DNA of 32,000 nt, taken from contig NC_010296.1 in NCBI RefSeq assembly GCF_000010625.1, positions 2,010,001 to 2,042,000 of the forward strand. The letters are read 5' to 3'. The notes below the pieces were generated by a model. It ran no database searches, was not told where the DNA came from, and saw only the letters and a list, made by a program, of their open reading frames with translations. Every line of letters begins with the position of its first letter. The first letter of the stretch is position 1. The translations under genes were made by a program, and so were the position numbers. The DNA is from Microcystis aeruginosa NIES-843. GTDB lineage: Bacteria > Cyanobacteriota > Cyanobacteriia > Cyanobacteriales > Microcystaceae. Shown here piece after piece: positions 4,879 through 30,854 of this stretch.

Positions 4879-5343
4879 CTATATTTCCAGATTATCGCCC
4901 GCAGGAAACCAATCTTCATCGAGAATTTGTTCAAGGGAACCAATGGGAATAACGGGGAAAGTATCGAGGGGTAATTGAGAGCGGTCACTGGCATTTTTTC
5001 GGGCTGAAAGATAACATTCATCAAAAATTTCCAAAAGATAAGGTTTCAGACTAGGACTATCTTTAAGTTCATCTAATATATCGAGACGAAAAGTTCTAAT
5101 CTCTCCCTTCCAGTGACCTTCGTTTCTCTCTCTTTCTGCCGCCCAATATTTGAGCTTAAGTAAATGTTCTAATAATCGGGTTAACAGACTTTTAATTGTG
5201 CGCTTTTCACTCCTTCCCATACTTGCTAATTCCTCTAGTAAATTCTCTAAATCTACCCGCTCAAACTGTCTGGCTTGCAGTTGATTAATAGTAGTTCTAA
5301 TCCAGAGATAAAAGTCTTCTTCGTACAGGGTTTTATTATCCAT
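4879..5343 (-). CDS. DUF29 domain protein, paralog 1 (most diverged)
   Basis: 154 aa. LYE.DFY.W......L.....E.VDLENL.EE..S.GRSE+R, ...W.GEI...R..I....KDSPSLKPY and a ...DEDWFP end are the classic DUF29 pattern. Confidence 0.8.
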   Translation of the reverse strand: MDNKTLYEEDFYLWIRTTINQLQARQFERVDLENLLEELASMGRSEKRTIKSLLTRLLEHLLKLKYWAAERERNEGHWKGEIRTFRLDILDELKDSPSLKPYLLEIFDECYLSARKNASDRSQLPLDTFPVIPIGSLEQILDEDWFPAGDNLEI

Positions 5344-5359
5344 AATTTACCTCTATATA

Positions 5360-5818
5360 TTACTCGTGGTTATTAGTGGGAAACCAATCTTCATCGAGAA
5401 TTTGTTCAAGGGAACCAATGGGAATAGGGGGGAAAGTATCAAGAGGTAATTGAGTTCTAACTTGAGCCTCTTTTCTAGCAAATTGATAGCATTCCTCAAA
5501 GATTTCCAGAATATAGGGTTTTAAACTAGGGCTATCTTTAATTTCTTCGATTATTTGTCGGCGAAAGTTGATAATTTCCCCTTTCCAGTGACCCTCATTT
5601 CTAGATTTTTCTCCTGTCCAGTAAGTTAGTTTCAGCAAATGTACCAGTAATTGAATCAAAAGATTTTCGATTTTGCGCTTTTCACTCCTTCCCATACTTG
5701 CTAATTCCTCCAGTAAATTCTCTAAATCTACCCGCTCAAACTGTCTCGCTTGCAGTTGATTAATAGTAGTTCTAATCCAGAGATAAAAGTCTTGTTCGTA
5801 CAGGGTTTTATTATCCAT
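5360..5818 (-). CDS. DUF29 domain protein, paralog 2
   Basis: 152 aa, same pattern. 16-nt spacer to the neighbouring copies. Confidence 0.8.
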   Translation of the reverse strand: MDNKTLYEQDFYLWIRTTINQLQARQFERVDLENLLEELASMGRSEKRKIENLLIQLLVHLLKLTYWTGEKSRNEGHWKGEIINFRRQIIEEIKDSPSLKPYILEIFEECYQFARKEAQVRTQLPLDTFPPIPIGSLEQILDEDWFPTNNHE

Positions 5819-5834
5819 AATTGACCTCTATATA

Positions 5835-6293
5835 TTACTCATGGTTATTAGTGGGAAACCAATCTTCATCGAGAATTTGTTCAAGGGAACCAAGGGGAAT
5901 AGCGGGGAAAGTATCGAGGGGTAATTGAGAGCGATCACTAGCATCTTTTCTAGCAAATTGATAGCATTCCTCAAAGATTTCCAAAAGATAGGGTTTGAGA
6001 CTAGGGCTATCTTTAACTTCTTTGATTATTTGTCGGCGAAAGTTTCTAATTTCCCCTTTCCAGTGACCCTCATTTCTAGCTTTTTCTCCTGTCCAGTAGG
6101 TTAGTTTCAGCAAATGTACCAGCAATTGAATCAAAAGATTTTCGATTTTGCGTTTTTCACTCCTTCCCATACTTGCTAACTCCTCCAGTAAATTATCTAA
6201 ATCTACCCGCTCAAACTGTCTGGCTTGCAGTTGATTAATAGTAGTTCTAATCCAGAGATAAAAGTCTTGTTCGTACAGAGTTTTATTTTCCAT
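5835..6293 (-). CDS. DUF29 domain protein, paralog 3
   Basis: 152 aa, same pattern. Confidence 0.8.
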   Translation of the reverse strand: MENKTLYEQDFYLWIRTTINQLQARQFERVDLDNLLEELASMGRSEKRKIENLLIQLLVHLLKLTYWTGEKARNEGHWKGEIRNFRRQIIKEVKDSPSLKPYLLEIFEECYQFARKDASDRSQLPLDTFPAIPLGSLEQILDEDWFPTNNHE

Positions 6294-12556: not shown

Positions 12557-14776
12557 AACTGCGGCAGAACTTTGAACCCACATTCCGCACCCTCAACTGT
12601 CACATAATACCAAATTTCTAAATCCATGACAGACATCCACGCTCGAATGCTTGCCAAGCCGGTGTTCGTTGTGACGCGAATAAAGAAAAATGGTGTAAGC
12701 TGTCCCCCTCCAGAGACTTGAGTAAAAATACCTAGCTGGTGAAGGTTTTCTCGGTGGCCGCTAGGGGGGTCTTGAGACCCCTAATTATGAAAAAATAGGA
12801 ATTGTTGGAAAACTGAGGCGAGTGGACTGTTCGACCATGAATCAATCAACAGAAATTGAAGTCAAAAATCTAGACCATCTGGGATTAGTAGCCGGAATTA
12901 TCGATGAAATAGGAATCGTTGAAATTATCAACGAACAAGTCTCAATTGAGCGAGGAGAAATTGTCACAGCGGGGCAAGTAGTGAAAGCAATTATCCTGAA
13001 TGGATTGGGATTTGTCTCCCGAGCCTTGTATTTATTTCCTCAATTTTTTGAAGATAAAGCAACCGAACATCTGCTGGGAGAGGGCATCGAACCCAAGCAC
13101 TTGAATGATGATAAAATTGGTCGAGTAATGGACAAACTTTATCAACTGGATGTTTCGGGTATTTTCCTACTCATCAGTTTAGCCGCCGTGAAAAAATTTG
13201 GTGTAGCAACCGAGAACTCCCATTTAGATTCGACTTCTCTATCAGTAGAAGGAGAATATAAAAAGGAATACCCAACAGTAGAAATCCTGAAATCAGGAGC
13301 AGTGGGAGAAGAAATTGAAACCAGACAACAGCCAATAAAAATTACCTACGGATACTCCCGCGACCGACGACCTGACTTAAAACAATTTATGATTGACTTA
13401 ATCGTAAGTGGGGATGGAGATGTACCTTTATTCCTGAAAGTAGGGGACGGAAATGAAGCGGACAAAGCGGTTTTTGGTCAAATCGCCCGAGAATTTAAAA
13501 AACAAGTTGACTTTGACAGTTTAATAGTCGGCGATAGCGCCCTCTATAGCAAAGAGAATTTAAAACTAATGAAAGAAATGCGTTGGTTGTCTCGAGTACC
13601 ATTAAGCATTAAAGAGGCTCAAGAGTTAGTCGATAGCATCTCAGAAAAAGAGTTAACCGATTCAGAAATACCGGGTTATTCCTGGCGGGAAACAAGCTCT
13701 AACTATGGGGGGATAGAACAAAGATGGTTGCTAGTTGAAAGTCAAGCTAGACAAGAATCAGACTTGAAAAAATTAGAGAAAAAAATCGAGCAGGAAAAGA
13801 ATTCTGCCCAAGAAAAAATCCGGCAACTATCCCGAAGAGAATTTGAGAATAGAGCGGTGGCGTTGGCGATAGCCAAAGGATTATCTGACTCCTTAAAATC
13901 TCATCAGTTAACGGAGATTAAAGTCAATCTCATTCCGCCTGAGTCCCAGGGGTCAAAACTCAAATCAAAAGACGATTTACCCTCTCAAAGCTATCAAGTT
14001 CAAGCCAAATTAGAGTTGAATTTGACCGCCATTGAGAGGCTAAAGAAACGAGCAGGACGATTCGTTTTAGCAACTAACGATTTGGAGAAACAACGATTAA
14101 GCAGTGAGGATATACTCAAAAAATATAAAGGGCAACAAGCTCCGGAAAGAGGATTTTCTTTTCTCAAAGACCCCTGCTTTTTTGCCCACAGTGTCTTTCT
14201 CAAATCTCCCCATAGAATCGAGGTCATGGCCATGCTCATGGGCTTGTGCCTGCTGGTTTATACTATTGGTCAAAGACAACTTCGTTTAAGTTTAAAACAG
14301 CAGGAGACGGGACTGAAAAATCCGTTGGGTAAGTTAACTGACCGACCGACGTTACGCTGGATATTTCAGTGCTTTCAAGGGATTCATCTCGTCCGTATTC
14401 AAGACAATCAAAAGATTAGCAACTTAACGGATGAGAGGCGCAACATTTTGAGATTTTTTCCCAAACCTTGCCAGGAATATTATCTCTTATCTTGACCAGA
14501 TGGATTGACTTCAAGGGGTGACAAAACAAAGCGAGCAACTGGAACATCTCCCCCTAGATGTTAAGTCTGATTGCCTAGTCATTCTCAACAAGCACTGTTT
14601 ATTGAGAATGACCGGGGGAACTCTGAAATTTTCGGCTTAGTTGCCGGCAGCTTGCCGCCAACTCACTCCTCTAGATAAGTATTTTGACTCACGCCCCTTC
14701 CTCTTTTGAGACGTTGTGACACTTAGGGTGCGGAATGTGGGTTTGAACAATTCTGGCGGGAAGCTGCCGCGCAGTT
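12557..14776 (+). mobile_element. IS1634-family (IS4 superfamily) insertion sequence; ends approximate
   Basis: Imperfect inverted termini: aactgcggcag...ttgaacccacattccgcaccct (12557-12593) versus agggtgcggaatgtgggtt...ctgccgcgcagtt (14725-14776), enclosing one transposase gene. Confidence 0.7.
12837..14495 (+). CDS. IS1634-family transposase
   Basis: About 552 aa. The N-terminal NLDHLGLVAGIIDEIGI motif and overall length and architecture are typical of IS1634 transposases. ATG at 12837 preferred over GTG at 12822. Confidence 0.75.
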   Translation: MNQSTEIEVKNLDHLGLVAGIIDEIGIVEIINEQVSIERGEIVTAGQVVKAIILNGLGFVSRALYLFPQFFEDKATEHLLGEGIEPKHLNDDKIGRVMDKLYQLDVSGIFLLISLAAVKKFGVATENSHLDSTSLSVEGEYKKEYPTVEILKSGAVGEEIETRQQPIKITYGYSRDRRPDLKQFMIDLIVSGDGDVPLFLKVGDGNEADKAVFGQIAREFKKQVDFDSLIVGDSALYSKENLKLMKEMRWLSRVPLSIKEAQELVDSISEKELTDSEIPGYSWRETSSNYGGIEQRWLLVESQARQESDLKKLEKKIEQEKNSAQEKIRQLSRREFENRAVALAIAKGLSDSLKSHQLTEIKVNLIPPESQGSKLKSKDDLPSQSYQVQAKLELNLTAIERLKKRAGRFVLATNDLEKQRLSSEDILKKYKGQQAPERGFSFLKDPCFFAHSVFLKSPHRIEVMAMLMGLCLLVYTIGQRQLRLSLKQQETGLKNPLGKLTDRPTLRWIFQCFQGIHLVRIQDNQKISNLTDERRNILRFFPKPCQEYYLLS

Positions 14777-15741: not shown

Positions 15742-16989
15742 CTGGACTGTTTCAGCTAAAATAGGGCAATAGCTCGAACAAGCAGAGGACATCAATCATG
15801 GGAAGAGGTCGGCGAGATAAAGTCAATCTAACAGGGGAACAAAGAGAAAACCTCGAACAAATCAGTCGTAATGGCTATGCACCAGCTAAAAAAATTCTCC
15901 ACGCTCGGATTTTGCTGATGTGTGACGAGGGAGAACAGGCGAAAAGGAAATGGACAGATGAAGAAATAGGCGAAGCTTTAGAAGTTCATAGAAATACAGT
16001 GGGACGTATTCGTCAAAGATTTCTTCAAAAAGGCGAAAAACCAGCATTAGAACGGAAATCGAGAAAAACTCCCCCCACTCCGGCAAAAGTTGATGGAGCC
16101 GCCGCCGCCCAAATCATTGCCCTGTGCTGTTCGGAGCCACCATCTGGCCGAGCCGAGTGGACAATCCGACTATTAACCTCGGAACTCAAACAAAGACAAA
16201 TTATCACCGAGATTTCCAGTCCAACGGTGTGGCGTACTCTAAAAAAAACCAATTACGCCCTTGGAAAACCCAAAGATACTGTATTCCGGAACAGGATTTA
16301 GCCCGATTTGTTGCCCAGATGGAAGTTGTCCTTGACCTGTATGGCACTCAGCCATCGGAAGAAGAACCGTTAATCGCGATGGATGAAGCATCAAAGCAAC
16401 TACTTGGAGAAGTTTACCCTCCGATACCCATGCAACCTGGACAAGATAAAAAAGAAGACTATCACTATAGTCGTGAAGGGGTTCAAGCCTTGTTCATGTT
16501 TTTTGACCCCCATCGAGGATGGAGACGGGTGAGTAACCGAGATAGTCGAACCCGAATAGATTGGGCAGAAGAAATTCGTCAATTATTGGATGTGGACTAT
16601 CCAAAGGCTCGAAAAGTCAAGCTCGTCTGTGATAATCTCAACACTCATAACATAGCCTCGCTTTATGAAGCATTTCCAGCACCCGTTGCTCATCGTTTAG
16701 CTAGAAGACTGGAAATTTATTACACACCTCGTAATGGTAGCTGGTTAAATGTAGCCGAAACTGAACTAAGCGTCTTATCGAGGCAATGTTTAGATAGAAG
16801 GATTTCTAGCAAGGAAGAACTGAAAAGGGAGATAGAAACCTGGCAAAAAGAACGTAATCAGACTGCATCTACAGTAATATGGACGTTTACGACCAGCGAT
16901 GCTAGGGTCAAGCTGAAACATCTTTATCCTGTGTTTGAGGAGGAGGAATCGGGAGAATCTATTGCACCAAATTAGCTGAAACAGTCCAC
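15742..16989 (+). mobile_element. IS630-family insertion sequence, 1248 bp, flanked by TA
   Basis: TIRs CTGGACTGTTTCAGCTAA (15742-) and TTAGCTGAAACAGTCCAC (-16989). TA on both sides (15740-41 and 16990-91), the IS630/Tc1 target duplication. Confidence 0.85.
15798..16975 (+). CDS. IS630-family transposase in two frames (orfA 15798-16301, orfB 16124-16975); needs a -1 shift on A8 at 16241-16248
   Basis: orfA ...VWRTLKK then orfB NQLRPWKTQRYCIPEQD... restores the family-typical LKKN.L+PW...+.WCIP junction. orfB carries the DDE region. Confidence 0.75.
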
Positions 16990-16998
16990 TACGAAAGC

Positions 16999-17401
16999 TT
17001 ATAAGTCATCTTCCGATAATCGAGCTATTTTCATAATTGATTTTAAAGTTCCAATTTTTAAGTCCTGATTGCGGTGTACAGGAATAGATAGAATTTTATG
17101 GTTCTTCGTTACTTGGTATGGTTTGATCGGGTGGCATAAATCGACTAAATCCTTATCTGGCAAGAGACTTAATTGATTAGCTCGTTCTAGATCGAAAACA
17201 ATTGGCAAAAATCGAAGCAATGTCTTTATATATAAGGGTTTCATCCCTTATAACCCCCCTCCATTGCATAACAAAAACCGAAGAACCAATTTTATCTTCA
17301 TCCTCCTTTTCATAAATATGGTGACTACTGGTAATTTTTTTGAGTATCCAACCTTTTTTTTCGACAATTTTACAGAGTTTTTTCCCTGATATTGATTTCA
17401 T
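16999..17401 (-). pseudogene. hicA: hicA toxin gene interrupted by a MITE
   Basis: Track ORFs 17177-17401 (N-terminal part, MKSISGKKLCKIVEKKGWILKKITSSHHIYEKEDEDKI) and 16999-17244 (C-terminal part, LSIPVHRNQDLKIGTLKSIMKIARLSEDDL) are two halves of one HicA. Removing 17100-17287 plus one 8-bp TSD leaves 207 nt, an intact 68-codon ORF. Confidence 0.85.
17100..17287. mobile_element. 188-bp MITE (TIR GGTTCTTCG / CGAAGAACC) with 8-bp TSD AATTTTAT, inserted in hicA
   Basis: Collinear with 10668-10854. Identical 8-mers at 17092-17099 and 17288-17295. Confidence 0.85.
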
Positions 17402-17601
17402 ACAGCAATTTCAATCACTTCTGACCTAGATTCAGGTTGTTTGCTTTCATTGGCAACTTCTAACCAGCCTTGTATGGCATCTTGGAGGTTATCGACAACT
17501 TCGTCCATACTATCTCCTTCTGTTATACAACCGGGCAGAGCGGGAACTTCAGCCCAGTAACCGCCTTCTTCGGCTGGATGAATAATAGCTTTGATTTTCA
17601 T
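17398..17601 (-). CDS. hicB: HicB antitoxin (UPF0150/HicB-like)
   Basis: 67 aa from the internal ATG at 17601 (MKIKAIIHPAEEGGYWAEVPALPGCITEGDSMDEVVDNLQDAIQGWLE). ATGA overlap with the hicA start. The 57-aa N-terminal extension in the track ORF has no family resemblance. Confidence 0.75.
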   Translation of the reverse strand: MKIKAIIHPAEEGGYWAEVPALPGCITEGDSMDEVVDNLQDAIQGWLEVANESKQPESRSEVIEIAV

Positions 17602-17840
17602 CAGGTTCAGAATTTTTGAAAACTTATCTTTTATTTTAATATGAATATGGAAGTTGGGTTTCCTTGCGTCAACCCAACCTACAGGCGATGCGATCACACT
17701 ATTAGATATGTAGATATGATTAGATAAGGTACAATGAAAGATGTAGATGCACCTACTTAAGCCATGAAACAAGTTCTCAAAAATATTGAGGTATCAGAGA
17801 TTCCCACACTAATCGATACATGGATAGATATTCCTGTAAA

Positions 17841-18212
17841 TTAATCGATAGTAAAAAATGTGGGATATCCCGAACGATCAGCCCCTATGGAATAATATGT
17901 ATTGACTGGAACACCATGTAAAGGTGGTATGGCTAAATAACAACGCCGGAAAGTTTTATCCAAAATAGTTTTTTGCATACATCTTTTTACCAATTTTGCG
18001 GGGATCAGGCAACTAATCCTACTAAAAGTTGCACCAGGAATACCTGGCACTATCGAAAATCTGTCATGATCATTTATACACTTATATACTTGACCAGATT
18101 GAGCTATTAAAAAGTCTTTGTTTTCACTTAAGTTAAATGTTTTAGCTTGTCGAGACACAGTTAGTCCCAATAAAGTTAATACAGCCGTTATGTATATTAC
18201 ACTTGTTTTCAT
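17841..18212 (-). CDS. Hypothetical small secreted protein
   Basis: 123 aa, N-terminal signal-like helix (MKTSVIYITAVLTLLGLTVS), 4 Cys. No family recognised. Confidence 0.4.
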   Translation of the reverse strand: MKTSVIYITAVLTLLGLTVSRQAKTFNLSENKDFLIAQSGQVYKCINDHDRFSIVPGIPGATFSRISCLIPAKLVKRCMQKTILDKTFRRCYLAIPPLHGVPVNTYYSIGADRSGYPTFFTID

Positions 18213-18249
18213 TAATGTATCTCCTCAAAGTGCGATCGCTCCCCCTCGC

Positions 18250-18380
18250 AGCCAGATTAAGCAACAACCCAACACCAAAGGCGGACAAAACAACAATACA
18301 CACTCACCCCCCCACAACTGTATTAAAAGTTACAAAATAATAAATCTTTACATTCCTCTCCCTAGCAGCGATTCACTGGG
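18250..18380 (+). repeat. Cassette-boundary repeat, copy 1
   Basis: Shares ...acaacaatacac..cacccccc..., the identical 16-mer AATAAATCTTTACATT (18339-18354) and ...ctccctag..gattcac with copies at 19203-19335 and 20225-20315. All are in the same orientation. Confidence 0.8.
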
Positions 18381-18390
18381 GACAATTGAG

Positions 18391-18579
18391 ATATTGGGAC
18401 TTAGGCGTTTTCGGTCAGCAAAAAAGGCTCAAACCATTACGGGACAAAGGGTTAACCTCGATTTATGATTTTCCTTGATATATCTGGGTTTCAGCGATTT
18501 TGGGCTTCTCGAAGTAAATCCCAAGCGGGGATTGGAGTTGAAGCTTTTCTCGATTTGTTTTTTGTCTAAGTCCCAATAT
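18391..18579. mobile_element. 189-bp MITE-like element with perfect 14-bp TIR ATATTGGGACTTAG
   Basis: atattgggacttag at 18391-18404 and ctaagtcccaatat at 18566-18579. No credible ORF inside. Confidence 0.6.
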
Positions 18580-18607
18580 TTCCTCTTTGCGAACTATAAT
18601 CCAAAAA

Positions 18608-18928
18608 TTAGTAGTGAAAAAATTCAACCAAGCGATCAGCCACTAACATTGCCATTTGTTCGTCAAGACGGCTAATTTGAGCGACGATTCGGGTTTTGTC
18701 GATCGCTCTAATTTGGTCTAAGGCAATACTACCTCGCACATTTTCTTGGTCAATCGGGATTCTGGTGGGGTATTTTTTGACTGTGCTGGTGATGGGAGCG
18801 ACGACTACTGTTCTCAACCGAGCATTAATCTCGCTAGGGGAAACAATAACACAAGGTCGGGTTTTTTGCAGTTCGGAACCCCTAGTCGGATCGAGTTCCA
18901 CTAGAACCACAGCAAATCTTTCTACCAT
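18608..18928 (-). CDS. mazF: Type II toxin MazF/PemK family endoribonuclease
   Basis: 106 aa from ATG at 18928 (MVERFAVVLVELDPTRGSELQKTRPCVIVSP...LDQIRAIDKTR), a classic PemK pattern. Overlaps the mazE stop by 7 nt. The longer track ORF start is less likely. Confidence 0.8.
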   Translation of the reverse strand: MVERFAVVLVELDPTRGSELQKTRPCVIVSPSEINARLRTVVVAPITSTVKKYPTRIPIDQENVRGSIALDQIRAIDKTRIVAQISRLDEQMAMLVADRLVEFFHY

Positions 18929-19164
18929 AGATTTTCTTGCTCGAACTCGTTTTCCACTCCTAACCAATCCTGTAACTCTGCTTCGAGCGGTTCGTCATCA
19001 AATAATTCAGCCCACCCCTCTCTCACCTTCTTTTTAGCACTCAGAATAATTTTTTTACCTTCGACTATCGCTTCGACTTCATCAGTGAGTTCGCACTGTT
19101 CCATAATCGCTTGAGGAATTGTAATTCCTTGAGAATTGCCGATTTGTACGATTTTCAGCAACAT
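18922..19164 (-). CDS. mazE: MazE/AbrB-fold (SpoVT-AbrB) antitoxin
   Basis: 80 aa. KIVQIGNSQGITIPQAIMEQ is the swapped-hairpin AbrB/MazE motif. Upstream of mazF. Confidence 0.75.
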   Translation of the reverse strand: MLLKIVQIGNSQGITIPQAIMEQCELTDEVEAIVEGKKIILSAKKKVREGWAELFDDEPLEAELQDWLGVENEFEQENLW

Positions 19165-19202
19165 TTTTGACTGCTTGGTAAATACATTGTCATTATATCA
19201 AT

Positions 19203-19335
19203 CAACCGCTTAAACAGCCCCACCCAACCCCAAAGGCAGACAACATAATAATTCACACTATCCCCATAAAGAAAGTATTTTAAGACACAATTTAATAAAT
19301 CTTTACATTTTTTCCCTAGCTTAGGGATTGACAGG
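19203..19335 (+). repeat. Cassette-boundary repeat, copy 2
   Basis: 16-mer core at 19294-19309. A 23-nt identity (ACAATTTAATAAATCTTTACATT) with copy 3. Confidence 0.8.
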
Positions 19336-19534
19336 GAAAGTTGTTTTCTCCTGTTTTACCCCTTCTTAGGCGACCTATCCTCATTCCGTGAGATATTGTG
19401 ACGCAGTATGTCCTATTCGCCTTTGCCTTCTCCCTTGACGGACTCTCAACTCGATCGCTAACCAAATTAAGCCCGATTACCTCCCATCAACCAGATGATA
19501 AACTGGGGATAAGAGACCTTATCAAGGCATCAGC

Positions 19535-19834
19535 ATGACCACCAACGTAGCGAAAACTCAATGGCAGTATTTAGAGAAACGTCCTCATCCTTGGCGACAA
19601 CAGCTTTGTTTTCAAGGCAGGAGGCTGAAAGCTTTTGATGTCTGGTCAGATATGATTGTCAATGACATGACTCCTCAAGAAGCAGCCCTTAATTGGGAGT
19701 TACCCCTGGCTGCCATCTACGAAGCAATTGACTACTGCGAGGCTAATCAGCAGCTACTCAAGCAAGAAGCGGAAGAAGAACGCCACCGTCTGGAAGCAAA
19801 GGGGATTAGTATTGAGCCTAAGATTATTGCTTGA
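19535..19834 (+). CDS. DUF433-like putative antitoxin
   Basis: 99 aa. GRRLKAFDVWSDMIVNDMTPQEAALNWELPLAAIYEAIDYCEAN resembles DUF433. Directly precedes a DUF5615 gene. Confidence 0.55.
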   Translation: MTTNVAKTQWQYLEKRPHPWRQQLCFQGRRLKAFDVWSDMIVNDMTPQEAALNWELPLAAIYEAIDYCEANQQLLKQEAEEERHRLEAKGISIEPKIIA

Positions 19835-20171
19835 TGAGGACTCGCAATCCCAACTTCTGGTTAAGTTACTTACGGCTGCTGATCATGACGTACTGACGAT
19901 CAATGAAATTGGTTTGGCTGGCTGCACAGATAATGTCGTACTTGACTATGCTATACAGGAAAATCGGATTCTGCTAACTCATAACTGCGATGACTTTGAA
20001 GAGTTGCACCAAGCGAATCCAAACCATTCGGGGCTCTTCGCGGTTTACCGTAACGCTAACCTCTTAAAAAATATGGGCTTCAAGGCAATTGTCAAGGCAA
20101 TCGCCAATCTCGAAACTGCTAACGTCCCCCTTGCTAATCAGTTCATCTCCCTGAACCACTGGAACTATTAA
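19827..20171 (+). CDS. DUF5615 PIN-like putative toxin
   Basis: Family-like sequence begins at LLDEDSQSQLLVKLLTAADHDV...ILLTHNCDDF. I place the start at TTG 19827, overlapping the upstream stop. The track ATG at 19728 would overlap the antitoxin gene by 107 nt. Confidence 0.6.
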   Translation: MLDEDSQSQLLVKLLTAADHDVLTINEIGLAGCTDNVVLDYAIQENRILLTHNCDDFEELHQANPNHSGLFAVYRNANLLKNMGFKAIVKAIANLETANVPLANQFISLNHWNY

Positions 20172-20224
20172 TTCTGGTTTGTCTCGATCTTGTCACAAAT
20201 CTTAACTTAATCTCTCCCTAACTA

Positions 20225-20315
20225 TTGAAAACAACAATACACTCTACCCCCCGCACAGTATCCTACGCTACAATTTAATAAATCTTTACATTATTCTCCC
20301 TGACTAGGGATTCAC
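20225..20315 (+). repeat. Cassette-boundary repeat, copy 3
   Basis: 16-mer core at 20277-20292. Same orientation as copies 1 and 2. Confidence 0.8.
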
Positions 20316-21019
20316 ATCGGATTTACACATCCTCACCCAATATTTCGTCAAAACTTACCGAAAAATTGGGTTTAAAGCCTCGCTCTTTTAGGGCGACTTT
20401 ATATGATGTATGCTATTAAGAATAGCGGGCAGGGTAAGCAACCGCTTAAAAAACCCAGTCATCGCCGGATGAACGCACCGTTCGGATCTCGGCGTGAGCT
20501 TTTCTCGAACGCTGAGCTCAGGGCAGCGCGGTCAAAAACGACATCGGTAAGATTGCCAACCAAATTATGATGGCTGTCACCTTGCGTTGGGAAACCATTT
20601 TGATGCCAGAGGAAAGAAAAGAGGGTCATCAGTCATCAGTTATCAGATTTGCGTTTTCAGTCCACTGATTACTGGAAATACTCCTCAACTCCCACTCTGC
20701 AATAACTACTGGCAGCCAGAAATACGTTGGTTACATATCATGCTTTGTGCTTTTTGTCAAAAAAACTTTTTTTTTGCAATAAAACTACACAAAAAAAAGA
20801 TCATCGTTGTGGGTGAAATTGACTGATTTACCCGTCTTAATTAGGATTACCTTGTAGGTGTGGCAAGGGTTTCAACCATTGCTGTTCAAAAAAGCACATA
20901 ATAACCCACTATGAAATTCTATCAAATCGCTGTAACCATTGTAAAATCGTTGTTAAATAAAAATCTTTCTCAATTAATTCTTAAGAATTTATAAATATTG
21001 CGGAATGTTAATTTAAATA

Positions 21020-21048
21020 TTCTCAAGTTTTTGGAGTCAGTATATAAT
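21020..21048 (+). promoter_or_regulatory. Weak sigma70-type promoter candidate for the 21271 operon
   Basis: TTCTCA (21020-25), 17-nt spacer, TATAAT (21043-48) in an AT-rich region. Sequence match only. Confidence 0.2.
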
Positions 21049-21115
21049 GGTTGCTTATCTTTGTTGAAAAATAGAACTCCTGCAAAAATCCAACATCTAC
21101 CATTGGGTTAGAAGT

Positions 21116-21263
21116 CAGTTATCAGTTATCAGTTATCAGTTATCAGTTATCAGTTATCAGTTATCAGTTATCAGTTATCAGTTATCAGTTATCAGTTCAC
21201 TGAGAAAACTCCCCACACCCCACACCCTACACCCCACACCCTACACCCCACACCCTACACCCC
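21116..21263 (+). repeat. STRR-type heptamer arrays: (CAGTTAT)11 at 21116-21192 and (CCCYACA)~7.5 at 21211-21263
   Basis: Perfect tandem 7-mers ending 7 nt before the ATG at 21271. The complementary strand reads (GGGGTGT/AGGGTGT)n. Confidence 0.95.
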
Positions 21264-21270
21264 AATTCTT

Positions 21271-22605
21271 ATGAGAGATTCCCTATCGAGCCATCTAAGA
21301 GTACAACAACATTGCCTCAATCAAGTTAAATTAGCCGTGAGAAAGCAGGGCTTTAGCAGTCAACGCTCCTTAGCTAAAGAAGCTGAATTTAGTCTGGCTA
21401 TTGTCAGTAACTTCCTGACCGGTAAACCGGTAGAAAAAGCCACTTTTGCCCAAATTTGTCGTCGATTATGCCTCGACTGGCAAGAAATCGCCGCCCTGAA
21501 TGTTCAGCTAACAGCACCCCCTCAAGACAAAATTCTGGTTAATTCTCCATCCAAGAGCGAAAAATTGGACACATTACCCCCCTATCCCAATGGGGCAGTT
21601 CCCCTTGGTTCCCCATTTTATTTAGAACGTCTTCCCCTCGAAGAACAGATAAGGCAGGAAATCAAGAAACCGGGGGCTTTAGTGCGGATAAAAGCCCCGA
21701 AAGAAATGGGCAAAACTTCCCTACTTTTGAGAATGCTCGATTTTGCCAAACAGCAAGGCTACCGCACGGTGAGTTTGAACTTAGAACAGGTGGACCAGAC
21801 GATTTTGGCTGATTTAAACCAATTTTTGCGCTGGTTGTGTGCCAATGCCGCCCGTCAACTACAGTTAAAACCGCAATTAGATGAGTATTGGGATGAGGAT
21901 TTAGGCAGCAAGATTAGCTGTACGGTTTACATTCAAGACTATCTGCTTGAATCGATTACCGCCCCCATTGTCCTCGCTCTCGATGAACTTAATCAGATTT
22001 TTGAACATCCCCAGGTGGCCAAGGATTTTTTACCGCTGCTGCGTTCTTGGTACGAAGAAGCCAAAACCCTACCTATTTGGCAAAAACTCCGTCTTATCGT
22101 CGTCCATTCCACGGAAATTTATGTTCCCCTGCAGCTCAATCAATCCCCCTTTAACGTGGGATTCCCCGCACAGTTAAGTCATTTTAGTCTTGAGGAGGTA
22201 TTGCAATTAGCCCAACGTTATCAACTCACCTGGGAAAATCAGGAAAAAGTCAAACAATTGATGGAGTTAGTGGGAGGACACCCGGCTTTGGTACAAACTG
22301 CCCTCTACTATCTCAGTCGGGAGGAAATAACCATGACGCAAATATTAACCAGTGCCACCTCCGTCACGGGGATTTATGCCCATCACCTGCGACGCCATTG
22401 GGCGGTATTAGAACAACAGCCTGAACTAGCAAAAGCCCTCGATCGGGTGATGAGCGCGGTGGAACCCGTACAATTAGACCCAATTCTCGCTTACAAACTC
22501 AGCAGTATGGGGCTGCTCAAACAATCAGGAGATAAAGTAGTACCAGGCTATGAATTGTATCGACGCTATTTTTTAGAGGTGAAATCCTCTATCAGTTATC
22601 AGTAA
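21271..22605 (+). CDS. HTH + AAA_35 (AAA-like domain) STAND-type P-loop NTPase
   Basis: 444 aa. N-terminal HTH-like segment (SQRSLAKEAEFSLAIVSNFLTGKP). Then SPFYLERLPLEEQIRQEIKKPGALVRIKAPKEMGKTSLLLRM (Walker A at nt 21706-21720), Walker B IVLALDELNQI and GGHPALVQ, the pattern I associate with Pfam AAA_35. Confidence 0.7.
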   Translation: MRDSLSSHLRVQQHCLNQVKLAVRKQGFSSQRSLAKEAEFSLAIVSNFLTGKPVEKATFAQICRRLCLDWQEIAALNVQLTAPPQDKILVNSPSKSEKLDTLPPYPNGAVPLGSPFYLERLPLEEQIRQEIKKPGALVRIKAPKEMGKTSLLLRMLDFAKQQGYRTVSLNLEQVDQTILADLNQFLRWLCANAARQLQLKPQLDEYWDEDLGSKISCTVYIQDYLLESITAPIVLALDELNQIFEHPQVAKDFLPLLRSWYEEAKTLPIWQKLRLIVVHSTEIYVPLQLNQSPFNVGFPAQLSHFSLEEVLQLAQRYQLTWENQEKVKQLMELVGGHPALVQTALYYLSREEITMTQILTSATSVTGIYAHHLRRHWAVLEQQPELAKALDRVMSAVEPVQLDPILAYKLSSMGLLKQSGDKVVPGYELYRRYFLEVKSSISYQ

Positions 22606-22872: not shown

Positions 22873-24705
22873 ATGAATATGTCAATCAAAGATACTGTCC
22901 AAAATACTGTCAACGTTAGTAATTTTAGTCGCTCGCAACTAGGTCAACCGGATGAGAACAATTTATATCAAGCAGTCGCCACAATTACCGAGGGACGTTG
23001 GCCAGAAAATCTGTCGGGATACGTTTTTATCGTCTGTCCTTTTCATAGAAAAAATGACCGTCATTTGTTCTCTGGCGAGGGTGTAATTATTAAATGGGAC
23101 TTGCAAGGGAAAAATAATCAAGTTAATGTTTACAGTAAGAAACTGAAAACCTGGGATAGTTTTTGGCGAAAAGTTTTACCGATATTTAATATTAGTCAAG
23201 CCACTTTTCCTGCCGTGGTCAGCATTTTGGGTTGTTCAGAAATAGCGAATACTGCTATGATTAAACTAGAAAAAGTTGCCGAAGATCAACAACTAGAAGA
23301 AACCAGATTAATTCTCACCGCCGATGCGGGACGTTACTGGGAAGTGGACCCCGTTTCCCTTGATACTATCACTCCGATTGGTTATTTTGACCAACATATT
23401 GTTTCCGTGCCTTTATCTTTTTTCCCAGTCCTAGAAAATACCGCTCATCCCTTCTACGACAAAAAAACCAAAGAATTTATCACCTGTGAATTAAAGCTAA
23501 AACTTGTATCGGGAGGTATGTTAAAAGACTTAGATAAATCGGCGTATATTGTTCTTTGGGATCAACAAAAACAACTTAAACCTTGGAAACTACAGGGAGC
23601 TATCCTCGATGGTAGTCCCCATTCGGTCATCGTCACCGAGGATTATATCATGATTCCCGATATGCCTTTTCAGATGGGAGTAGCCAAACTATTAGGTATC
23701 AGAATTAAGCCGGAAGAAACCTATCCGAAAACTCAAATTTATCTGGTTAAACGTCAAGACCTCAAGGAAGAAGAAACCACCGTTCCCTCGCAATTAATTA
23801 CCTTCAATGGCGACAGTTATCACTTCCTTTGTAATTACCATAGTACCAACGGTCAAATTCAGCTGGTGGCCATCCAAAACGCCACTATTAGTTTAACCGA
23901 AGCGATCGAAAAAGACGATATCCAACATTTTACCGGTCAGGGTTATCCTCCCGAATACCACGGCATTCCCTGGATGTTTTCCTTTGACCCCGGAGTGCTG
24001 CGCAAAGTGGTTATCGAAGATGCCAGGGTGATGAGCGAACAAGCTTTCATCCATCCGGGGTGGTTCTCTACCACTCTCTACACCGCCGACCCGCGGGAAT
24101 CGGAACAGGGATACAGCGCTATTTATCAGGTTTATGCCGGTTATGTGCGCGAATTAATCTGTCGTCGTCAGTATATGGATTTTCGCGACCAAAGTAATCG
24201 CATCCTCAGGGATGCCGAACTTCCCTGTCATGACTTGCCCTCGGTATTAGCCAAGGTTTCCTTCGATAAGGATTGGAATCAGTTAACTGAACAGATTAGC
24301 CAAGAAAAAAAAGCCAGTAATACTCATGTATCACATTTAGGTCGGGGACTACTGGATTTTTATGTTTGTCCCGATGGCTATATTTTAGATAGCATTCAGT
24401 TTATTCCCCAAGAACAGGGCTATCTATTTACGACGGTTTTAACCCCGACCAGAGTATTAGAAGCTTGGTTATTTAACCCTGACAATCTCAAGGACGGACC
24501 GATTGCTAAACTGAGTTTGCCGGAAGATGTTCACTTTGGTTTTACCTTGCATTCCGAGTATTTCGAGCAAGTGCTGCCTTCTCCCCGTCCTTCCGTCTCA
24601 CAGGTAAATCGAGTCCTGTCAGCCTTGCGGAGTCTTGTTTTAGTTCCCGTAGAATTTTTCTTGGGGAGACCCGCAGCCATTTACAATCGCCAAGTAAAAA
24701 AATGA
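22873..24705 (+). CDS. Divergent carotenoid oxygenase (RPE65/CCD) family-like protein
   Basis: 610 aa from ATG 22873; the track uses TTG 22855, which lies in repeat-derived sequence. Candidate iron ligands: H192 (TAHPFYD), H250 ([16 protein letters not shown]), H317 (SYHFLCNY), H560 (FTLHSEY). Motif contexts and the 58/67-aa spacings resemble AHPK.D, HDFAITENY and FHH.NA in known CCDs. Confidence 0.6.
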
Positions 24706-27700
24706 TTGTTCTCAACGGATACGACATTCTTGCCCAAATCTACGAAAGTGTTAACTCAGAAGTCTATCGGGCCATTCGCATCGCCGATAATCAACCGGTT
24801 ATGCTCAAAATCCTCAAGCAAGAATATCCAACCGCACAAGAACTAACCCACTACAAACAGGAGTATAAAACCATCTGCGGCCTGAACTTCGAGGGGGCGA
24901 TTAAAGCCTATGGTTTAGAAACCTACCGCAGAACTCCCGTGATTATTTTGGAAGATTTCGGGGGTATATCCTTAAAAAAATGGCTAGAGGGCAAACCCCT
25001 GGCCTTAAGGGACTTTTTAAGCCTTGCACCCCGAATAGTGGCTAATTTAGAGAAAATTCACAACGCCAAGGTTATTCACAAAGATATTAATCCTGCCAAT
25101 ATAGTTCTTAACCCCGAAACCGGACAAATTAAAATCATCGATTTTGGCATTGCCAGCGTCCTGCGGCGGGAAAATCCGGGGCTAAAAAATCCCAACGTCC
25201 TTGAGGGGACTTTAGCCTATATTTCTCCGGAACAAACCGGACGGATGAATCGCAGTCTCGATTACCGCACGGATTTTTATTCCTTGGGCGTTAGCTTCTA
25301 CGAACTTCTCACCGGACAATTACCTTTTCGGGCTAAAGATGCTTTGGAATTAGTTCACTGTCATCTGGCAAAACAACCTCTGGAGATTAATAGTCTCGTC
25401 AGGGAGAAAATTCCCCCGGTGGTGGAGGCAATCATCAGGAAACTGATGGCTAAAACCCCCGAGGAACGATACCAAAGTGCCTATGGTATTCGGGCAGATT
25501 TAGAAGAATGTTTAAGACAACTAGAAACAACGGGTAAAATTGAGGATTTTGTCATCGCTGGGCAAGATCTAGCCAATCAGTTCCAAATTCCCCAAAAACT
25601 CTACGGTAGGGAGGCGGAAATCGCCACTCTCCTCACTGCTTTTCAACGGGTAGCCACCGCAGATAAAAACTCCTCTCACACCGAACTGATGCTAGTTACG
25701 GGTTATTCTGGCATGGGTAAAACCACCCTGGTTAGGGAAATTTACCAGCCAATTACTGAAAAACGCGGCTTTTTTATCTCCGGTAAATTTGACCAATTTC
25801 AGCGCGATACTCCCTACGCTGCCGTGGTTAGCGCTTTGACTCATCTCGTCAAGCAACTTTTGGGGGAAAGTCAACCACAACTGGAACTATGGCGACAAAA
25901 ACTCCTCAAGTCTTTGGGGGCGAATGCACGGGTTATTATTGATGTGATTCCTGAACTAGAATTAATTATCGGTCCACAACCAGAGGTGTTACAATTAGGA
26001 GCGATCGCTACTCAAAATCGCTTTAATTTAGTCTTTAAAAATTTTATTCGGGTCTTTTGTTCCCCGGAACACCCCTTAGTCATCTTTCTCGATGATTTGC
26101 AATGGGCAGACTTGGCTAGTCTCCAGTTAATAGAATTAATTATGCTCGATGGCGATATGGACTATTTGTTTTTAATTGGCTCCTATCGCAGTAATGAAAT
26201 TAATTCCACCCATCCCCTAACCGCTACTCTCGATAAATTAGAGCAGGGGGGCATAATTATCAATCAAGTTATTTTAAGACCTCTAGGTCCTGCACAGGTC
26301 AATCAGTTAATTGCTGACACCTTAAATCATTCACCAGAATATGTGCAATCTTTGGCCGCTTTAGTCTGGCAAAAAACCCACGGTAATCCTTTTTTTGTCA
26401 ATGAATTTCTCAAAACTATCTACTGGGAAAATTTGCTATTTTTCCAACTGGAGCAGGAAAAAACCACTAAAACCGACAATAATAGGGGTTATTGGCAATG
26501 GCATCTCGGTCAAATTCAAAGGATTGGTAGTACCGATAATCTGATTCAATTTATGGTCGGTAAAATGCAGAAATTGCCCCCCGAAACCCAGGAAATTTTA
26601 AGTTTAGCAGCTTGTCTTGGGCCAGAGTTTAATTTATATAGTCTGGCAGTAATCTCTGAAAAATCACCTCCAGAACTTTTACCAATTTTAACTTCTAGTA
26701 GCGAAGCTGGTTTAATTATTCCCCTCTCAGAATTGGATGAACAATTACTGATTCAAGAATATAAATTTGCTCATGATCGCATTCAACAAGGAGCTTACGC
26801 TCTCATCGAAGACAGCAAAAAATCTTTAATTCATTTAAAAATTGGTCGCCTCCTTTGGCAGCATACATCTGTCAACGAATTATCGGAAAAGATTTTTAAA
26901 ATAGTCGATCATCTCAATCTTGGTTATCGACTAATTAGCGAGGAAAAAGAACGAGAGTCAGTGGCTAACTTGAATTTACTAGCAGCCCAAAAGGCAAAAG
27001 CCGCTAATGCCCAAACTGGAGCCTTAAAATATATTAAAATCGCTCAAAAACTTCTCAAAAAATCCAGCTGGAAAAATAACTATCAACTGACTTTAAATAT
27101 TTATTCTGAAGCCACAGAAATCGCCTATTTAAGTGGGAACTTTGAGCAGATGCAACGCTGGGCTAATCTCGTATTAAAACAGGCAAAAACAACCCTAGAT
27201 AAGGTTAAAGTTTATGAAGTCATCATCGAAGCCTATCACGCCCAAAATCAAGAACTAAAAGCGGTAGAAATTGGTTTATCCGTCCTCAAAAGCCTAGATT
27301 TCGAGATTCCTGAATCCTTACAATCATCAGATATTCAAAAAGAACTAACTAAAACCAGACAAAAATTAGCGGGTAAAAATATCAAAGATTTAATTAATTT
27401 ACCGCCGATAAATGAAGAAGAAAAATTAGCAATCATGAAGATAGCAAGTGCCATATTTTCTCCTGTTTATATTGCCGCCCCTCATCTCTTACCCATCCTA
27501 GTATCAAAACAGGTTAACTTATCAATTGAATACGGCAATAGTTATCTAGCGGCTTTTACTTATGTCAATTATGGCTTAATTCTTTGTGGTCTTTTAGAAG
27601 ATTGGGAAACGGGTTATCAATTTGGACGATTAGCTTTAAACATTGCTGATAAATTTCATGCCAAAGCCCTGATGCCGAAAATAATTGCCGTCTTTTCCGC

Positions 27701-30700
27701 CACTATTAGTATCTGGAAAGAACCGATTAAAAATTCCCTGTCCTTGTTAAAATCTTCCTATCAAACCGGTTTAGAAATGGGCGATCTCTACTACGGAACA
27801 ACCTGCGCCTATCTTTACTGTTTTCATTCCGCCTTTATCGGACAGGAATTAACCGAATTAGCCCAAGAAATAGCTAACTATGATCTGGCTTTTGTTAAGC
27901 TCAAACAAGAAAACCCCCGCAACTATCTAAAAATCTATGGTCAAACAGTTTTAAATCTGCTGAGGCACTCGGAAAATCCCGGTCATTTAGAAGGACAGTA
28001 CTATCAAGAAACTCTTATGTTACCGTACCATCTAGAGGCTAATGATCTCTTCGGTCTCTGTGCTTTATTTGTTAATAAATTATACCTTTGTTATCTATTT
28101 GGACAGTACGAACCAGCCATTGAAAATGCTAACCAAGCCCAAAATTATCTAGGGGGAGCTACCGCTACTTTATTGATTCCTCTGCATAATTTCTATGATT
28201 CCCTCGCCCATTTAGCTATTTATAATCATCTGGATAATGACCAAAAACAGCAAGTATTAGAACGGGTGACGAATAATCAGAAAAAGCTACGGGAATGGGC
28301 TAATCAAGCACCCCCTAACTATCTCCATAAATTTTATTTAGTGGCAGCGGAAAAGGATCGGGTGCAGGAATCCTATCTAGAAGCCATAGAAAACTACGAT
28401 CTAGCCATCGCTAAAGCCAAGGAAAATGAATACATTAATGAAGAGGCACTGGCTAACGAACTAGCGGCGAAATTCTATCTCGATTGGGGTAAAGTAAAAA
28501 TTGCCAAAACCTACATCAATGAAGCTGCTTATCTCTATTCTCTTTGGGGAGCAACAGCTAAAGTCAAAGATATAGAAAGCCGTTATTCTCAGTTAATGGT
28601 CAATAATTATGGTTCCAATTCCCTGACCGAAACTAGGAGAACTTCCACCAGAAAAAATTCAGCTAGTCATTCGGGAGAACTGTTAGATTTAGCCACGATT
28701 ATGAAGGCCTTCCAAGCCATTTCTAGCGAGATAGTTTTAGATAAATTACTCGCCACCCTGATGAAAATTCTCATCGAAAATGCTGGGGCGCAGCTGGGCT
28801 ATCTTATCCTAGAAAGCGGCGGACAACTATTGATCGAAGCCTCCGGTTCGGTGCAGGAAGATGGGGTGACAGTCTTTAAATCTAATGCCATCGAAGAACA
28901 TCTTCCCGTCTCAATTATTAACTATGTAGCCCGGAGCGGTCAAACCGTTCTTAATGACGATGCTGCCCATGAGGGCAATTTTAGCAATGATTCCTATATT
29001 AAAACCCATCAAACCAAATCCCTGCTCTGTTCGCCCCTCCTCGACCAAGGACAACTGCGGGGAATTGTCTATCTAGAAAATAATCTCACCGTCGGGGCTT
29101 TTACCCAAGAAAGATTGGAAGTGCTGCAACTGCTCTCCAGCCAAGCGGCGATCGCAATTACTAACGCCAAACTCTACGCCGAAATCAAAGCCAAACAGAG
29201 ACAACTAGCGCAATTTTTAGAAGCGATGCCAGTGGGGGTATTCGTCCTCGATGCTGGCAGTCAACCCTATTATGCCAATCAAACCGCCCAAGAGATTTTA
29301 GGCAAAGAGATAGTTAATATCACCACGGCTAATCAGTTGGGGGAAACCTATCAGTTATATCAAGCTGGAACCGATCGATTGTATCCCACAGAATACCATC
29401 CGATTGTCCGAGCTTTAAGGGGGGAAAAAAACACGATGGATGATCTAGAAATTCACCAAGGAGAGAAGATTATTCCCCTAGAAGTGTATGCCACGCCCGT
29501 TTTTGACGAAAAAGGAGAAATTATCTATGCGATCACCGCTTTTACCGATATTACCGAACGAAAACAGGCGGAAGCGGAACGGATTCGCTTTACCGAAGAA
29601 TTAGCCGAGTATAGCCGCACCCTAGAACAGAAAGTGCAGGAGCGCACCCTAGAACTCAGCCAAACCCTAGAAATTCTCAAGGCCACCCAAGCAGAATTAC
29701 TGTTTGAAAACGAACTCCTCAAAACTAACGAACAATCTAGCACCTTTGACTACCAAGTGGGGGGCAGTTTACCCATGGATGCCCCCACCTACGTGGTCCG
29801 CGCCGCCGACCGTTATCTCTATAAAGCCCTCAAACGGGGCGATTTTTGCTATGTTCTCAATCCCCGTCAAATGGGTAAGTCTAGTTTAATGGTACGCATG
29901 ATCGACCACCTCCAACACGAGGGGGTCTGTTGCGCTCCCATTGATTTAACCCGCATCGGCAGCGAAAATGTCACTCCCGACCAATGGTACAAGGGGATAG
30001 CCTTCGAGTTAGGGCGACGTTTTGGACTGCTCAAAAGGGTCAATCTCAAAGCTTGGTGGCAAGAACGGGAAGATGTCTCGGCAGTACAGCGCTTGGGCGA
30101 ATTTATCGAAGAAGTGTTATTGCTGGAAGTGGGGATCGTGGAAGGTTCTCCCCCGAAACCGATCGCGATTTTTATCGATGAAATTGATAGCGTTTTGGGC
30201 TTAAATTTCGCGGTTAATGACTTTTTTGCCCTGATTCGTTCCTGCTATAACCAGCGTGGTTTTAACCCGCTCTATCGGCGTTTGACCTTCGCTTTCTTCG
30301 GTGTTGTCACCCCCTCCGATTTAATTACCGACCACCAAATCACTCCTTTTAATATCGGTCATTCGATTCAATTGGAGGGTTTTAAGGAACACGAAGCCCA
30401 GCCTTTACTGCGCGGATTGGCCGAGAAAGTTAGTAACCCGCAAACTGTCTTAAAAGAAGTCTTTGCTTGGACAAACGGTCAACCTTTTCTGACCCAAAAA
30501 CTCTGTCAGTTAATTCGCACCGCCGCCTCGCCGATTCCCCCCAATGGTGAGGCCTCCTGGATTGAGGACTTGGTACAGAAGAAGATCATTGACAATTGGG
30601 AGGCTCAGGATGAACCGGAACATCTGCGGACTATTCGCGATCGGCTTCTCAACAGTCATCGCTCCCAGTTGCTCCTGAAACTCTATGAACGGATTTTAAG

Positions 30701-30854
30701 GGAAAAAGAGGTAATTTCCGAGGATAGCCCTCCAGAAAAAGAGTTACTTTTATCGGGGTTAGTGATCAAAGACCAAGGCCGGCTGCTGGTCCATAATCCC
30801 ATCTATCAAGCAATCTTTAACCCCCATTGGCTGGCCCTGGCAAAATCAACCTAA
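24702..30854 (+). CDS. 2050-aa multidomain protein: Ser/Thr kinase + AAA_16 NTPase + helical/TPR-like region + GAF + PAS + coiled coil + C-terminal AAA_35 NTPase
   Basis: Kinase: [12 protein letters not shown] (H126/D128), DFG (D147), SPEQ. AAA_16: Walker [10 protein letters not shown] (nt 25701-27), Walker [15 protein letters not shown] about nt 28680-29190. PAS about 29215-29560 (..[14 protein letters not shown]). Coiled coil to about 29740. AAA_35: [50 protein letters not shown] (Walker A nt 29871-82), Walker [16 protein letters not shown] overlap with the upstream gene. Confidence 0.75.

Follow-up and report, generated by a model that had tools for sequence, protein, structure and literature searches.

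A promoter-like repeat in co-oriented arrays with exchangeable toxin-antitoxin cassettes in Microcystis

What is the repeat that recurs, always in the same direction, beside small toxin-antitoxin (TA) modules on the chromosome of Microcystis aeruginosa NIES-843? We addressed this question in a stretch of 32,000 nucleotides (assembly GCF_000010625.1, contig NC_010296.1, positions 2,010,001 to 2,042,000 of the forward strand), which we call the window and whose coordinates are used throughout. Within 2.1 kb of the window there are three co-oriented plus-strand copies of this repeat, here termed R and numbered R1 to R3 (Table 1). A preliminary description, made from the letters of the window, had considered that they may form an integron-like array of the integrase-less kind known as a CALIN, a cluster of attC sites that lacks an integrase. 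Its basic observation of three co-oriented copies with a common 16-mer, spaced 955 and 983 bp from core to core, is borne out by exact search and alignment. The 16-mer (AATAAATCTTTACATT) is present in each copy, on the plus strand in all cases, and has no other match in the 32 kb. The aligned copies have a mean column identity of 74% and a profile-aligned pairwise identity of 73-79%. The copy limits, which we set with a 143-position profile made from full-length relatives, had to be moved in part, as R1 and R2 reach further left than had been claimed. Likewise, the short palindrome that had been assigned to all three copies is present in R2 and R3 and not in R1. The pattern is not a chance occurrence, since the same element is clustered and co-oriented across Microcystis genomes and metagenomes.

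The spacing, the co-orientation and the TA content of this locus resemble those of CALINs, which are called from at least two co-oriented sites within 4 kb where R1 to R3 provide three in 2.1 kb. However, tests of folding, core sites and integrase content all speak against the integron assignment. Specifically, no attC-like hairpin is formed by either strand of the three copies when folded as DNA, with minimum free energies of -3.6 to -6.0 kcal/mol and z values from -1.0 to +0.8 relative to shuffled sequences. A scan of both strands of 17800-20400 for a RYYYAAC...GTTRRRY pair (the R''/R' core pair of attC) 40-130 nt apart also gave no match, in agreement with the earlier failure to find core sites by eye; ACCCAAC is present in R1 and R2 without a GTTRRRY partner. 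The reported lack of an integrase in the window is upheld by a Pfam scan, with no IntI or other integrase, recombinase or resolvase domain found in the open reading frames (ORFs) scanned, a set that did not directly include the 2050-aa ORF at 24702-30854. The counterpart of this ORF in a syntenic contig, HE973754 (L104), has kinase, AAA, GAF and PAS among its precomputed domains, together with four further families. Rfam yielded nothing at gathering thresholds over the window, and at E<=10 it gave two chance-level matches over 17.6-20.8 kb; Rfam is not known to hold an attC family. Two further properties are at odds with a CALIN, namely that the cassettes are found in both orientations and that R is well conserved in sequence, whereas attC sites conserve structure rather than sequence. 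R lacks two defining attC features and on these tests is not an attC site, and we regard a classical chromosomal integron remnant, a CALIN built of attC sites, as an extremely improbable source of this array.

R is apparently an undescribed dispersed family of ~130-145 bp that is specific to Microcystis and found throughout the genus, and a literature search that covered mobile promoters, PEP-CTERM promoters and NtcA or transcription-start data for Microcystis revealed no earlier description of it. A core-pattern scan of one genome per species returned 47 stretches, ~42 of them from Microcystis with several per genome, and the few records from elsewhere are chance matches or Microcystis-like contigs. 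The R profile recovered 79 copies from genomes, in 45 loci plus the window, and a further 166 from metagenomes, in 102 loci. A single metagenome-assembled genome (W13-11) has at least 11 copies. R is absent from IMG/VR viral contigs, phage records and plasmid records. A phage or plasmid origin, or a role as an att site, was rejected on this basis, with all 54 IMG/VR 17-mer matches being at chance level and none found to be R by the profile. Every multi-copy locus is co-oriented, as observed in 23 of 23 cases from genomes and 44 of 44 from metagenomes. The spacing between copies is bimodal, with one class of 650-1200 bp and another of 80-175 bp that consists of tandem partial copies. A typical interval contains one TA pair in either orientation, and the ORF families located between copies include PIN, ParE, YoeB/Phd, PemK/MazE, DUF6888/6887, HigB-like, DUF5615 and similar proteins. 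Thus, the picture of co-oriented repeats that separate self-contained TA modules, with repeat orientation constant and gene orientation variable, generalises beyond the window. One part of that picture needs to be amended for the window itself. The mazEF and DUF433-like/DUF5615 pairs do each occupy one interval, but the secreted-protein gene lies to the left of R1 and not between copies. Copies within one array are ~79% identical and are never mutual closest relatives, on which ground we rejected a recent tandem duplication of the array, and diverged copies within one genome share an identical core.

A second question that had been raised is whether cassette content differs between strains, and we find that both content and order differ at fixed chromosomal anchors. 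On their far-left side 62 R copies have 43 different contexts and on their far-right side 36, and these are paired in 53 combinations. Three anchors with differing cassette order are asnS, the ccmK operon and the AAA_35 gene of the window. The arrays adjacent to asnS, each with two to five R copies, exhibit at least six cassette orders in nine contigs, drawn from a set that includes Phd-YoeB, DUF6888-DUF6887, RelE-like and DUF433-DUF5615 cassettes and others. Some contigs have the Phd-YoeB pair in the asnS-proximal position, and another has it in the distal one. At the AAA_35 anchor the DUF433-DUF5615 pair and R3 are constant while the content upstream differs, and mazEF together with one R is missing in two contigs (L207, L189). 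At the ccmK locus one and the same ParE cassette lies across a single R from five different PEP-CTERM genes. A TATATT variant of the core stays with the right flank at this locus while the N8 sequence differs, which points to crossovers within the core. Five strains (L004, L006, L025, L042 and L047) have five different PEP-CTERM genes in the same position upstream of the ccmK operon, with R on one side, and the proteins that they encode appear by eye to share a conserved C-terminal sorting domain.

The anatomy of R provides an indication of what this element may be doing next to so many different genes. On the minus strand R has the consensus GGGAGAGGAATGTAAAGATTTATTAAAT-TGTAGCTTTTGATACA-GTTGTGGGGGGGGGAGTGTG-TATTGT-TCTGTTGTCCGCCTTTGGTGTTGGGTTGGGCTGTTGCTTGACCTAGCTGCGAGGGGG, which comprises a TGTA-N8-TACA palindrome, a gap of ~21 bp that often holds a variable poly-G tract, a TAnnnT hexamer and a conserved G/U-rich leader of ~70 nt. 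Information content is 1.1-1.4 bits at the GTA and TAC half-sites and low across the N8 that separates them. The GTAN8TAC box is present in 57 of the 79 genome copies; in the window R1 and R3 have it, and in R2 it is degenerate. The distance from TAC to TAnnnT has a mode of 21 bp and is 20-22 bp in most copies (21 in R1, 18 in R3 and 24 in R2), and the hexamer keeps its three defining bases while its inner bases vary, with TATTGT, TATCAT, TATAAT and TACTGT among the variants. Copies whose spacer is unrelated to the poly-C/G type also have the 21-bp distance, which speaks for a constraint on geometry. In NtcA-activated promoters GTAN8TAC is centred near -41.5 (PMC5714215), and the minus-strand layout of R matches this textbook class II geometry, making R a predicted NtcA-type promoter. 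A simple scan for canonical sigma-70 -35/-10 elements had no match in R1 or R3, and its sole match inside R is a 9/12 hit on the plus strand of R2 (19252-19281) that is not conserved in the family; the NtcA-type geometry has no -35 box by design.

The genes on the minus-strand side fit with such a promoter. Specifically, a gene start is located within 250 bp on this side in 94 of 131 complete copies (72%), and 44 of these 94 genes carry a PEP-CTERM motif, in at least 18 unrelated protein clusters. TIGR02595 is above cut-off, and PEP-CTERM heads the Pfam families of the large ORFs that neighbour R. In the window R1 is a good fit to the promoter model. The secreted-protein gene has its start codon ~74 nt away from the transcript start predicted for R1 and 29 bp from the left end of this copy, and this gene is found together with the same R1 in 10 other contigs. 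The other side of R has a mild orientation bias (105 plus-strand versus 71 minus-strand neighbours), and a short hairpin, then a terminator-like hairpin and then a TA operon are often found there. On this side lies the most conserved part of R, an almost invariant core of ~30 bp (ACAATTTAATAAATCTTTACATTCCTCTCCC on the plus strand) that contains a plus-strand -10-like TACATT or, more generally, TA(C/T)ATT. A structured minus-strand RNA was also considered and rejected, as RNAalifold on 28 copies recovered only the box palindrome, a weak G-U-rich leader hairpin and one covarying pair.

The tract between box and hexamer varies in length, with up to 13 C (plus strand) across the family and some copies without a tract. 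Differences are also seen among orthologous copies, with 4/6/6/9 C in the R3 set and 8/10/5 and 7/8/8 in two others. In R3 orthologues, including those in L035, L207 and L189, a tract of 4, 6 or 9 C shifts the spacing from 18 to 21 bp. This variation may reflect a phase-variable spacer, or homopolymer assembly error.

Taken together, the reading that we favour, with about even confidence, is that R is a portable two-way promoter/leader module that also acts as portable homology for the gain, loss and permutation of cassettes. Leftward, on the minus strand, a class II NtcA-type promoter would run into a gene start, most often that of a PEP-CTERM or other secreted protein; in the window the targets would be the secreted-protein gene for R1 and mazE for R2. 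Rightward, the -10-like TACATT of the core would be followed by short hairpin and terminator-like leaders and often by a TA operon. DNA circles or donor fragments bearing R would recombine with a resident R, either through insertion and excision of the Campbell type or, once DNA has been taken up, through a double crossover, and small accessory modules would in this way be added, removed and permuted. The inevitable outcome of recombination between R copies would be direct, co-oriented repeats with one module between them, and such repeats are the product of Campbell-type insertion or excision at a shared site whatever the enzyme. The anatomy of R, its pattern of conservation, the clustering, the co-orientation and the permutation of cassettes between strains are observed, and in this proposal we infer promoter activity, NtcA dependence and the recombination route from sequence.

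Several observations weigh against this reading. The R2 box is degenerate and the R3 spacing is 18 bp, and ~25% of complete copies have the 3' end of a TA operon in front of their predicted promoter side. Furthermore, conservation is higher in the ~30-bp core than in the promoter elements. A promoter role leaves this unexplained, and the core could be a site for a recombinase or a regulator. RecA would be inefficient at recombining repeats with an identity of 79% and a perfectly matched stretch of only ~30 bp. There are half-copies broken at or near the core, some in which the core and right part are joined to an unrelated left flank, and others in which the left part up to ACAATTTAA is joined to an unrelated right flank, and both also fit with site-specific cleavage. 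Finally, the locus counts are not counts of independent events, because many loci are orthologous between strains.

In another reading, R is the site of an integron analogue, with its ~30-bp core serving as the crossover site of a dedicated site-specific recombinase that is encoded elsewhere in the genome and that would take up, excise and rearrange TA and PEP-CTERM cassettes, with the promoter-like features as a secondary matter. The strict co-orientation of all 67 multi-copy loci and the cassette permutation at fixed anchors fit with such an enzyme, as do a core that is conserved beyond promoter need, the half-copies that break at the core and the ccmK-locus crossovers in the core. One left flank joins at least four different right flanks at the core, a core duplication of ~27 bp flanks an inserted ParE+PIN block, and the ~79% identity of copies within arrays makes them a poor RecA substrate. 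On the other hand, beyond the Pfam result for the window ORFs scanned, no recombinase is found among the recurrent protein clusters or top Pfam families around 45 loci, and the dyad symmetry of the core is weak by eye. Junctions are also found elsewhere in R, at profile positions ~55, ~84 and ~128, and R copies are internally mosaic in a manner typical of gene conversion; for example, L015 and L008 share both flanks and differ in the middle 35 nt. Precise cassette excision was rejected for the two mazEF-less ccmK loci (L020, L047), where mazEF was lost by ragged internal deletion. A perfect 30-bp core would focus RecA crossovers as well, so that the data do not separate homologous from site-specific exchange. 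The other possibility named in the preliminary description, a different modular recombination system, may apply. On balance we consider a dedicated recombinase acting at R unlikely. The combined version is an integron-like system with a different kind of site, in which a recombinase that crosses at the R core would take in and permute TA cassettes and those for PEP-CTERM surface proteins beside the housekeeping anchors asnS and ccmK, and R would also provide a nitrogen-regulated, poly-G phase-variable promoter; it is in our judgement an improbable one.

A different reading is that R is itself a non-autonomous mobile element, similar to a MITE (miniature inverted-repeat transposable element) or to a 'mobile promoter', and that the arrays arise from preferred insertion in TA islands. 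R is a discrete unit with recurrent ends (~1-4 and ~128 or 143) that abut many unrelated sequences, there are many dispersed copies per genome, and a true MITE and two insertion sequence (IS) elements are polymorphic in this same window. IS elements and MITEs abound in Microcystis genomes (PMC2442094). However, across 16000-22500 none of the R copies is bracketed by a pair of inverted repeats, and no target-site duplication or clean empty R site was found, the latter among ~150 loci in which R either differs together with its adjacent modules or decays. MITE and IS-derived elements have terminal inverted repeats and a target duplication, and the true MITE next to R1 has both whereas neither was found for R. 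In addition, the copies are old and diverged (73-90% identity) with no recent bursts, and strict co-orientation is unexpected from independent insertions. We find self-mobility of R a doubtful explanation. L108, which had seemed to give R1 a different neighbour, was rejected, because its junction runs through the MITE and could stem from a misassembly.

A further reading is ordinary paralogy, with R copies being leftovers of segmental duplications of a gene plus its upstream region that do not function as units. In its favour, both TA and PEP-CTERM genes form multi-copy families and the repeats are diverged. What this account does not predict is that the genes flanking R are mostly non-homologous, with the many PEP-CTERM clusters noted above and many TA families, that conservation ends sharply at the ends of R, that the core is near-invariant while the flanks are unrelated, and that copies within an array are never closest relatives. 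We judge it very unlikely. The R copies and their neighbours in the window are listed in Table 1.

Table 1. Coordinates of the R copies and of neighbouring features in the window
Feature	Position	Strand	Details
Secreted-protein gene	17841-18212	minus	123 aa, signal peptide, no family match
R1	18241-18376	plus	complete, profile positions 2-143
R1 leader	18241-18292	minus	
R1 -10-like TATTGT	18293-18298	minus	ACAATA on plus strand
R1 C7 tract	18307-18313		within 21-bp spacer
R1 NtcA-like box	18319-18334		TGTA-N8-TACA
R1 core 16-mer	18339-18354	plus	
R1 -10-like TACATT	18349-18354	plus	within 16-mer
MITE	18396-18575		180 bp, a short way right of R1; inverted ends GGGACTTAG / CTAAGTCCC; 5-bp duplication ATATT
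mazF	18608-18928	minus	Pfam PemK_toxin 8e-27
mazE	18922-19164	minus	Pfam MazE_antitoxin 2e-7
R2	19199-19332	plus	profile positions 10-143, nearly complete, most diverged copy
R2 box	19274-19289		degenerate, AGTA-N8-CACA; 24 bp to -10
R2 16-mer	19294-19309	plus	
R2 palindrome	19314-19326		CCCTAGCTTAGGG
Terminator-like hairpin and U-run	19334-19361	plus	directly after R2
Second dispersed repeat	19341-19516		~175 bp, unrelated to R; inside DUF433-like gene leader, right of R2
DUF433-like gene	19535-19834	plus	Pfam E=0.018, under cut-off
DUF5615 gene	19827-20171	plus	Pfam 1.9e-17; two-gene cassette with DUF433-like gene
R3	20230-20315	plus	profile positions 55-143; 5'-truncated, left 54 positions missing, no leader
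R3 ACAATA	20234-20239		
R3 C6 tract	20247-20252		
R3 box	20257-20272		18-bp spacing
R3 16-mer	20277-20292	plus	
R3 palindrome	20298-20309		
Structured stretch	20296-20405	plus	downstream of R3 plus-strand -10-like box

Several of the neighbouring features vary between strains in their own right. The MITE that had been noted beside mazEF is real, with inverted ends and a duplication. It is present in several metagenome contigs and missing from the otherwise near-identical L001, L104 and L110, so it is polymorphic, and it is not part of the R family. The mazEF pair apparently has its own TATAAT at about 19190 (by eye), and the cassette is found in a different context in L006, L025 and L042. In regards to the family assignments made previously, those of DUF5615, MazF and MazE are solid, while that of DUF433 is weak. 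The terminator-like hairpin after R2 has an intact version (CAGGGGAAGG..CCCCTGTTTT) in L207, L189, L035 and L037, and folding gave -16.3 and -19.2 kcal/mol. The second dispersed repeat is missing from the same leader in these four contigs and has copies in L004 and L021 (two each), L005, L019 and L048. Downstream of R3, the RNA of the structured stretch folds at -31.3 kcal/mol (z=-5.1) with a terminator-like site at its end (20380-20396). It is kept in 13 orthologues, which are too invariant for a covariation test, and could be a candidate small RNA of ~105 nt.

The surroundings form a TA island with VapBC, a broken HicA with HicB, and two IS elements. Specifically, hicA (16999-17401) is split into two overlapping ORFs by an apparent frameshift next to an intact hicB, while an intact 68-aa HicA is encoded in L106 and L109. 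The IS elements are an IS4-like transposase gene (DUF4277 and DDE_Tnp_1) at 12822-14495 and a frameshifted IS630-family transposase gene at 15798-16975, and both are strain-specific insertions because they are missing in the syntenic HE973754 and AP019314 (L105). A tRNA-linked island was rejected since no tRNA is found in the window. Immediately upstream of the AAA_35 gene (21271-22605) there is a perfect 12-copy TCAGTTA heptamer array followed by ~8 copies of CCCCACA (21115-21264). A second DUF433/DUF5615 pair (3651-4372) and three tandem DUF29 paralogues (4879-6293) have no flanking R, indicating that not all TA-like modules of the region use R.

In fresh waters, toxic cyanobacterial blooms are formed mainly by Microcystis. 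The known plasticity of its genome has mostly been put down to IS elements and long repeats (PMC2442094), to which R would add a specific architecture, a promoter-like joint for swapping TA modules and PEP-CTERM surface proteins at fixed sites. If the promoter reading is true, then secreted and surface proteins would be tied to nitrogen status via NtcA, with a possible switch through a spacer of variable length, and these proteins may bear on colony formation. If a dedicated recombinase is involved, then R would represent an integron analogue that uses a site of a new type, and little is known of cassette systems in this phylum. In both cases the 30-bp core, the three anchor loci and the transcript starts predicted here offer a testable handle.

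How does R compare with known systems? Like integron arrays and CALINs, it forms co-oriented repeats 0.6-1.2 kb apart with one small TA-rich module per interval, and the content and order of modules vary between strains at a fixed chromosomal site. Unlike integrons, R is conserved in sequence, has no hairpin and no RYYYAAC/GTTRRRY sites, and is accompanied by no IntI, attI or Pc; moreover, its cassettes lie in either orientation with their own promoters and the repeat itself is promoter-like. Like NtcA class II promoters, R has a palindromic TGTA-N8-TACA 20-22 bp upstream of TAnnnT, and a gene start comes next on the same strand. It differs in that the whole promoter and leader are dispersed before many unrelated genes, and also occur without a downstream gene, and in the additional ~30-bp invariant block beside the box. 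A further parallel is with the 'putative mobile promoters' of Matus-Garcia, Nijveen and van Passel (2012), reportedly upstream sequences of ~100 bp and high similarity before non-homologous genes in one genome. Unlike these, R is clustered in co-oriented arrays that bound exchangeable cassettes, with no associated transposase evident. The Bordetella fim poly-C tract and the Neisseria porA and opc tracts are homopolymer spacers of phase-variable promoters. R resembles them in having a poly-C/G tract between activator site and -10, with orthologue lengths of 4-10 C and spacings of 18-22 bp, and departs from them in that some copies without a tract keep the 21-bp spacing; switching at R is a possibility. 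By its behaviour R is similar to a CALIN or integron array, and by its anatomy it is closest to an NtcA class II promoter that has turned into a dispersed repeat.

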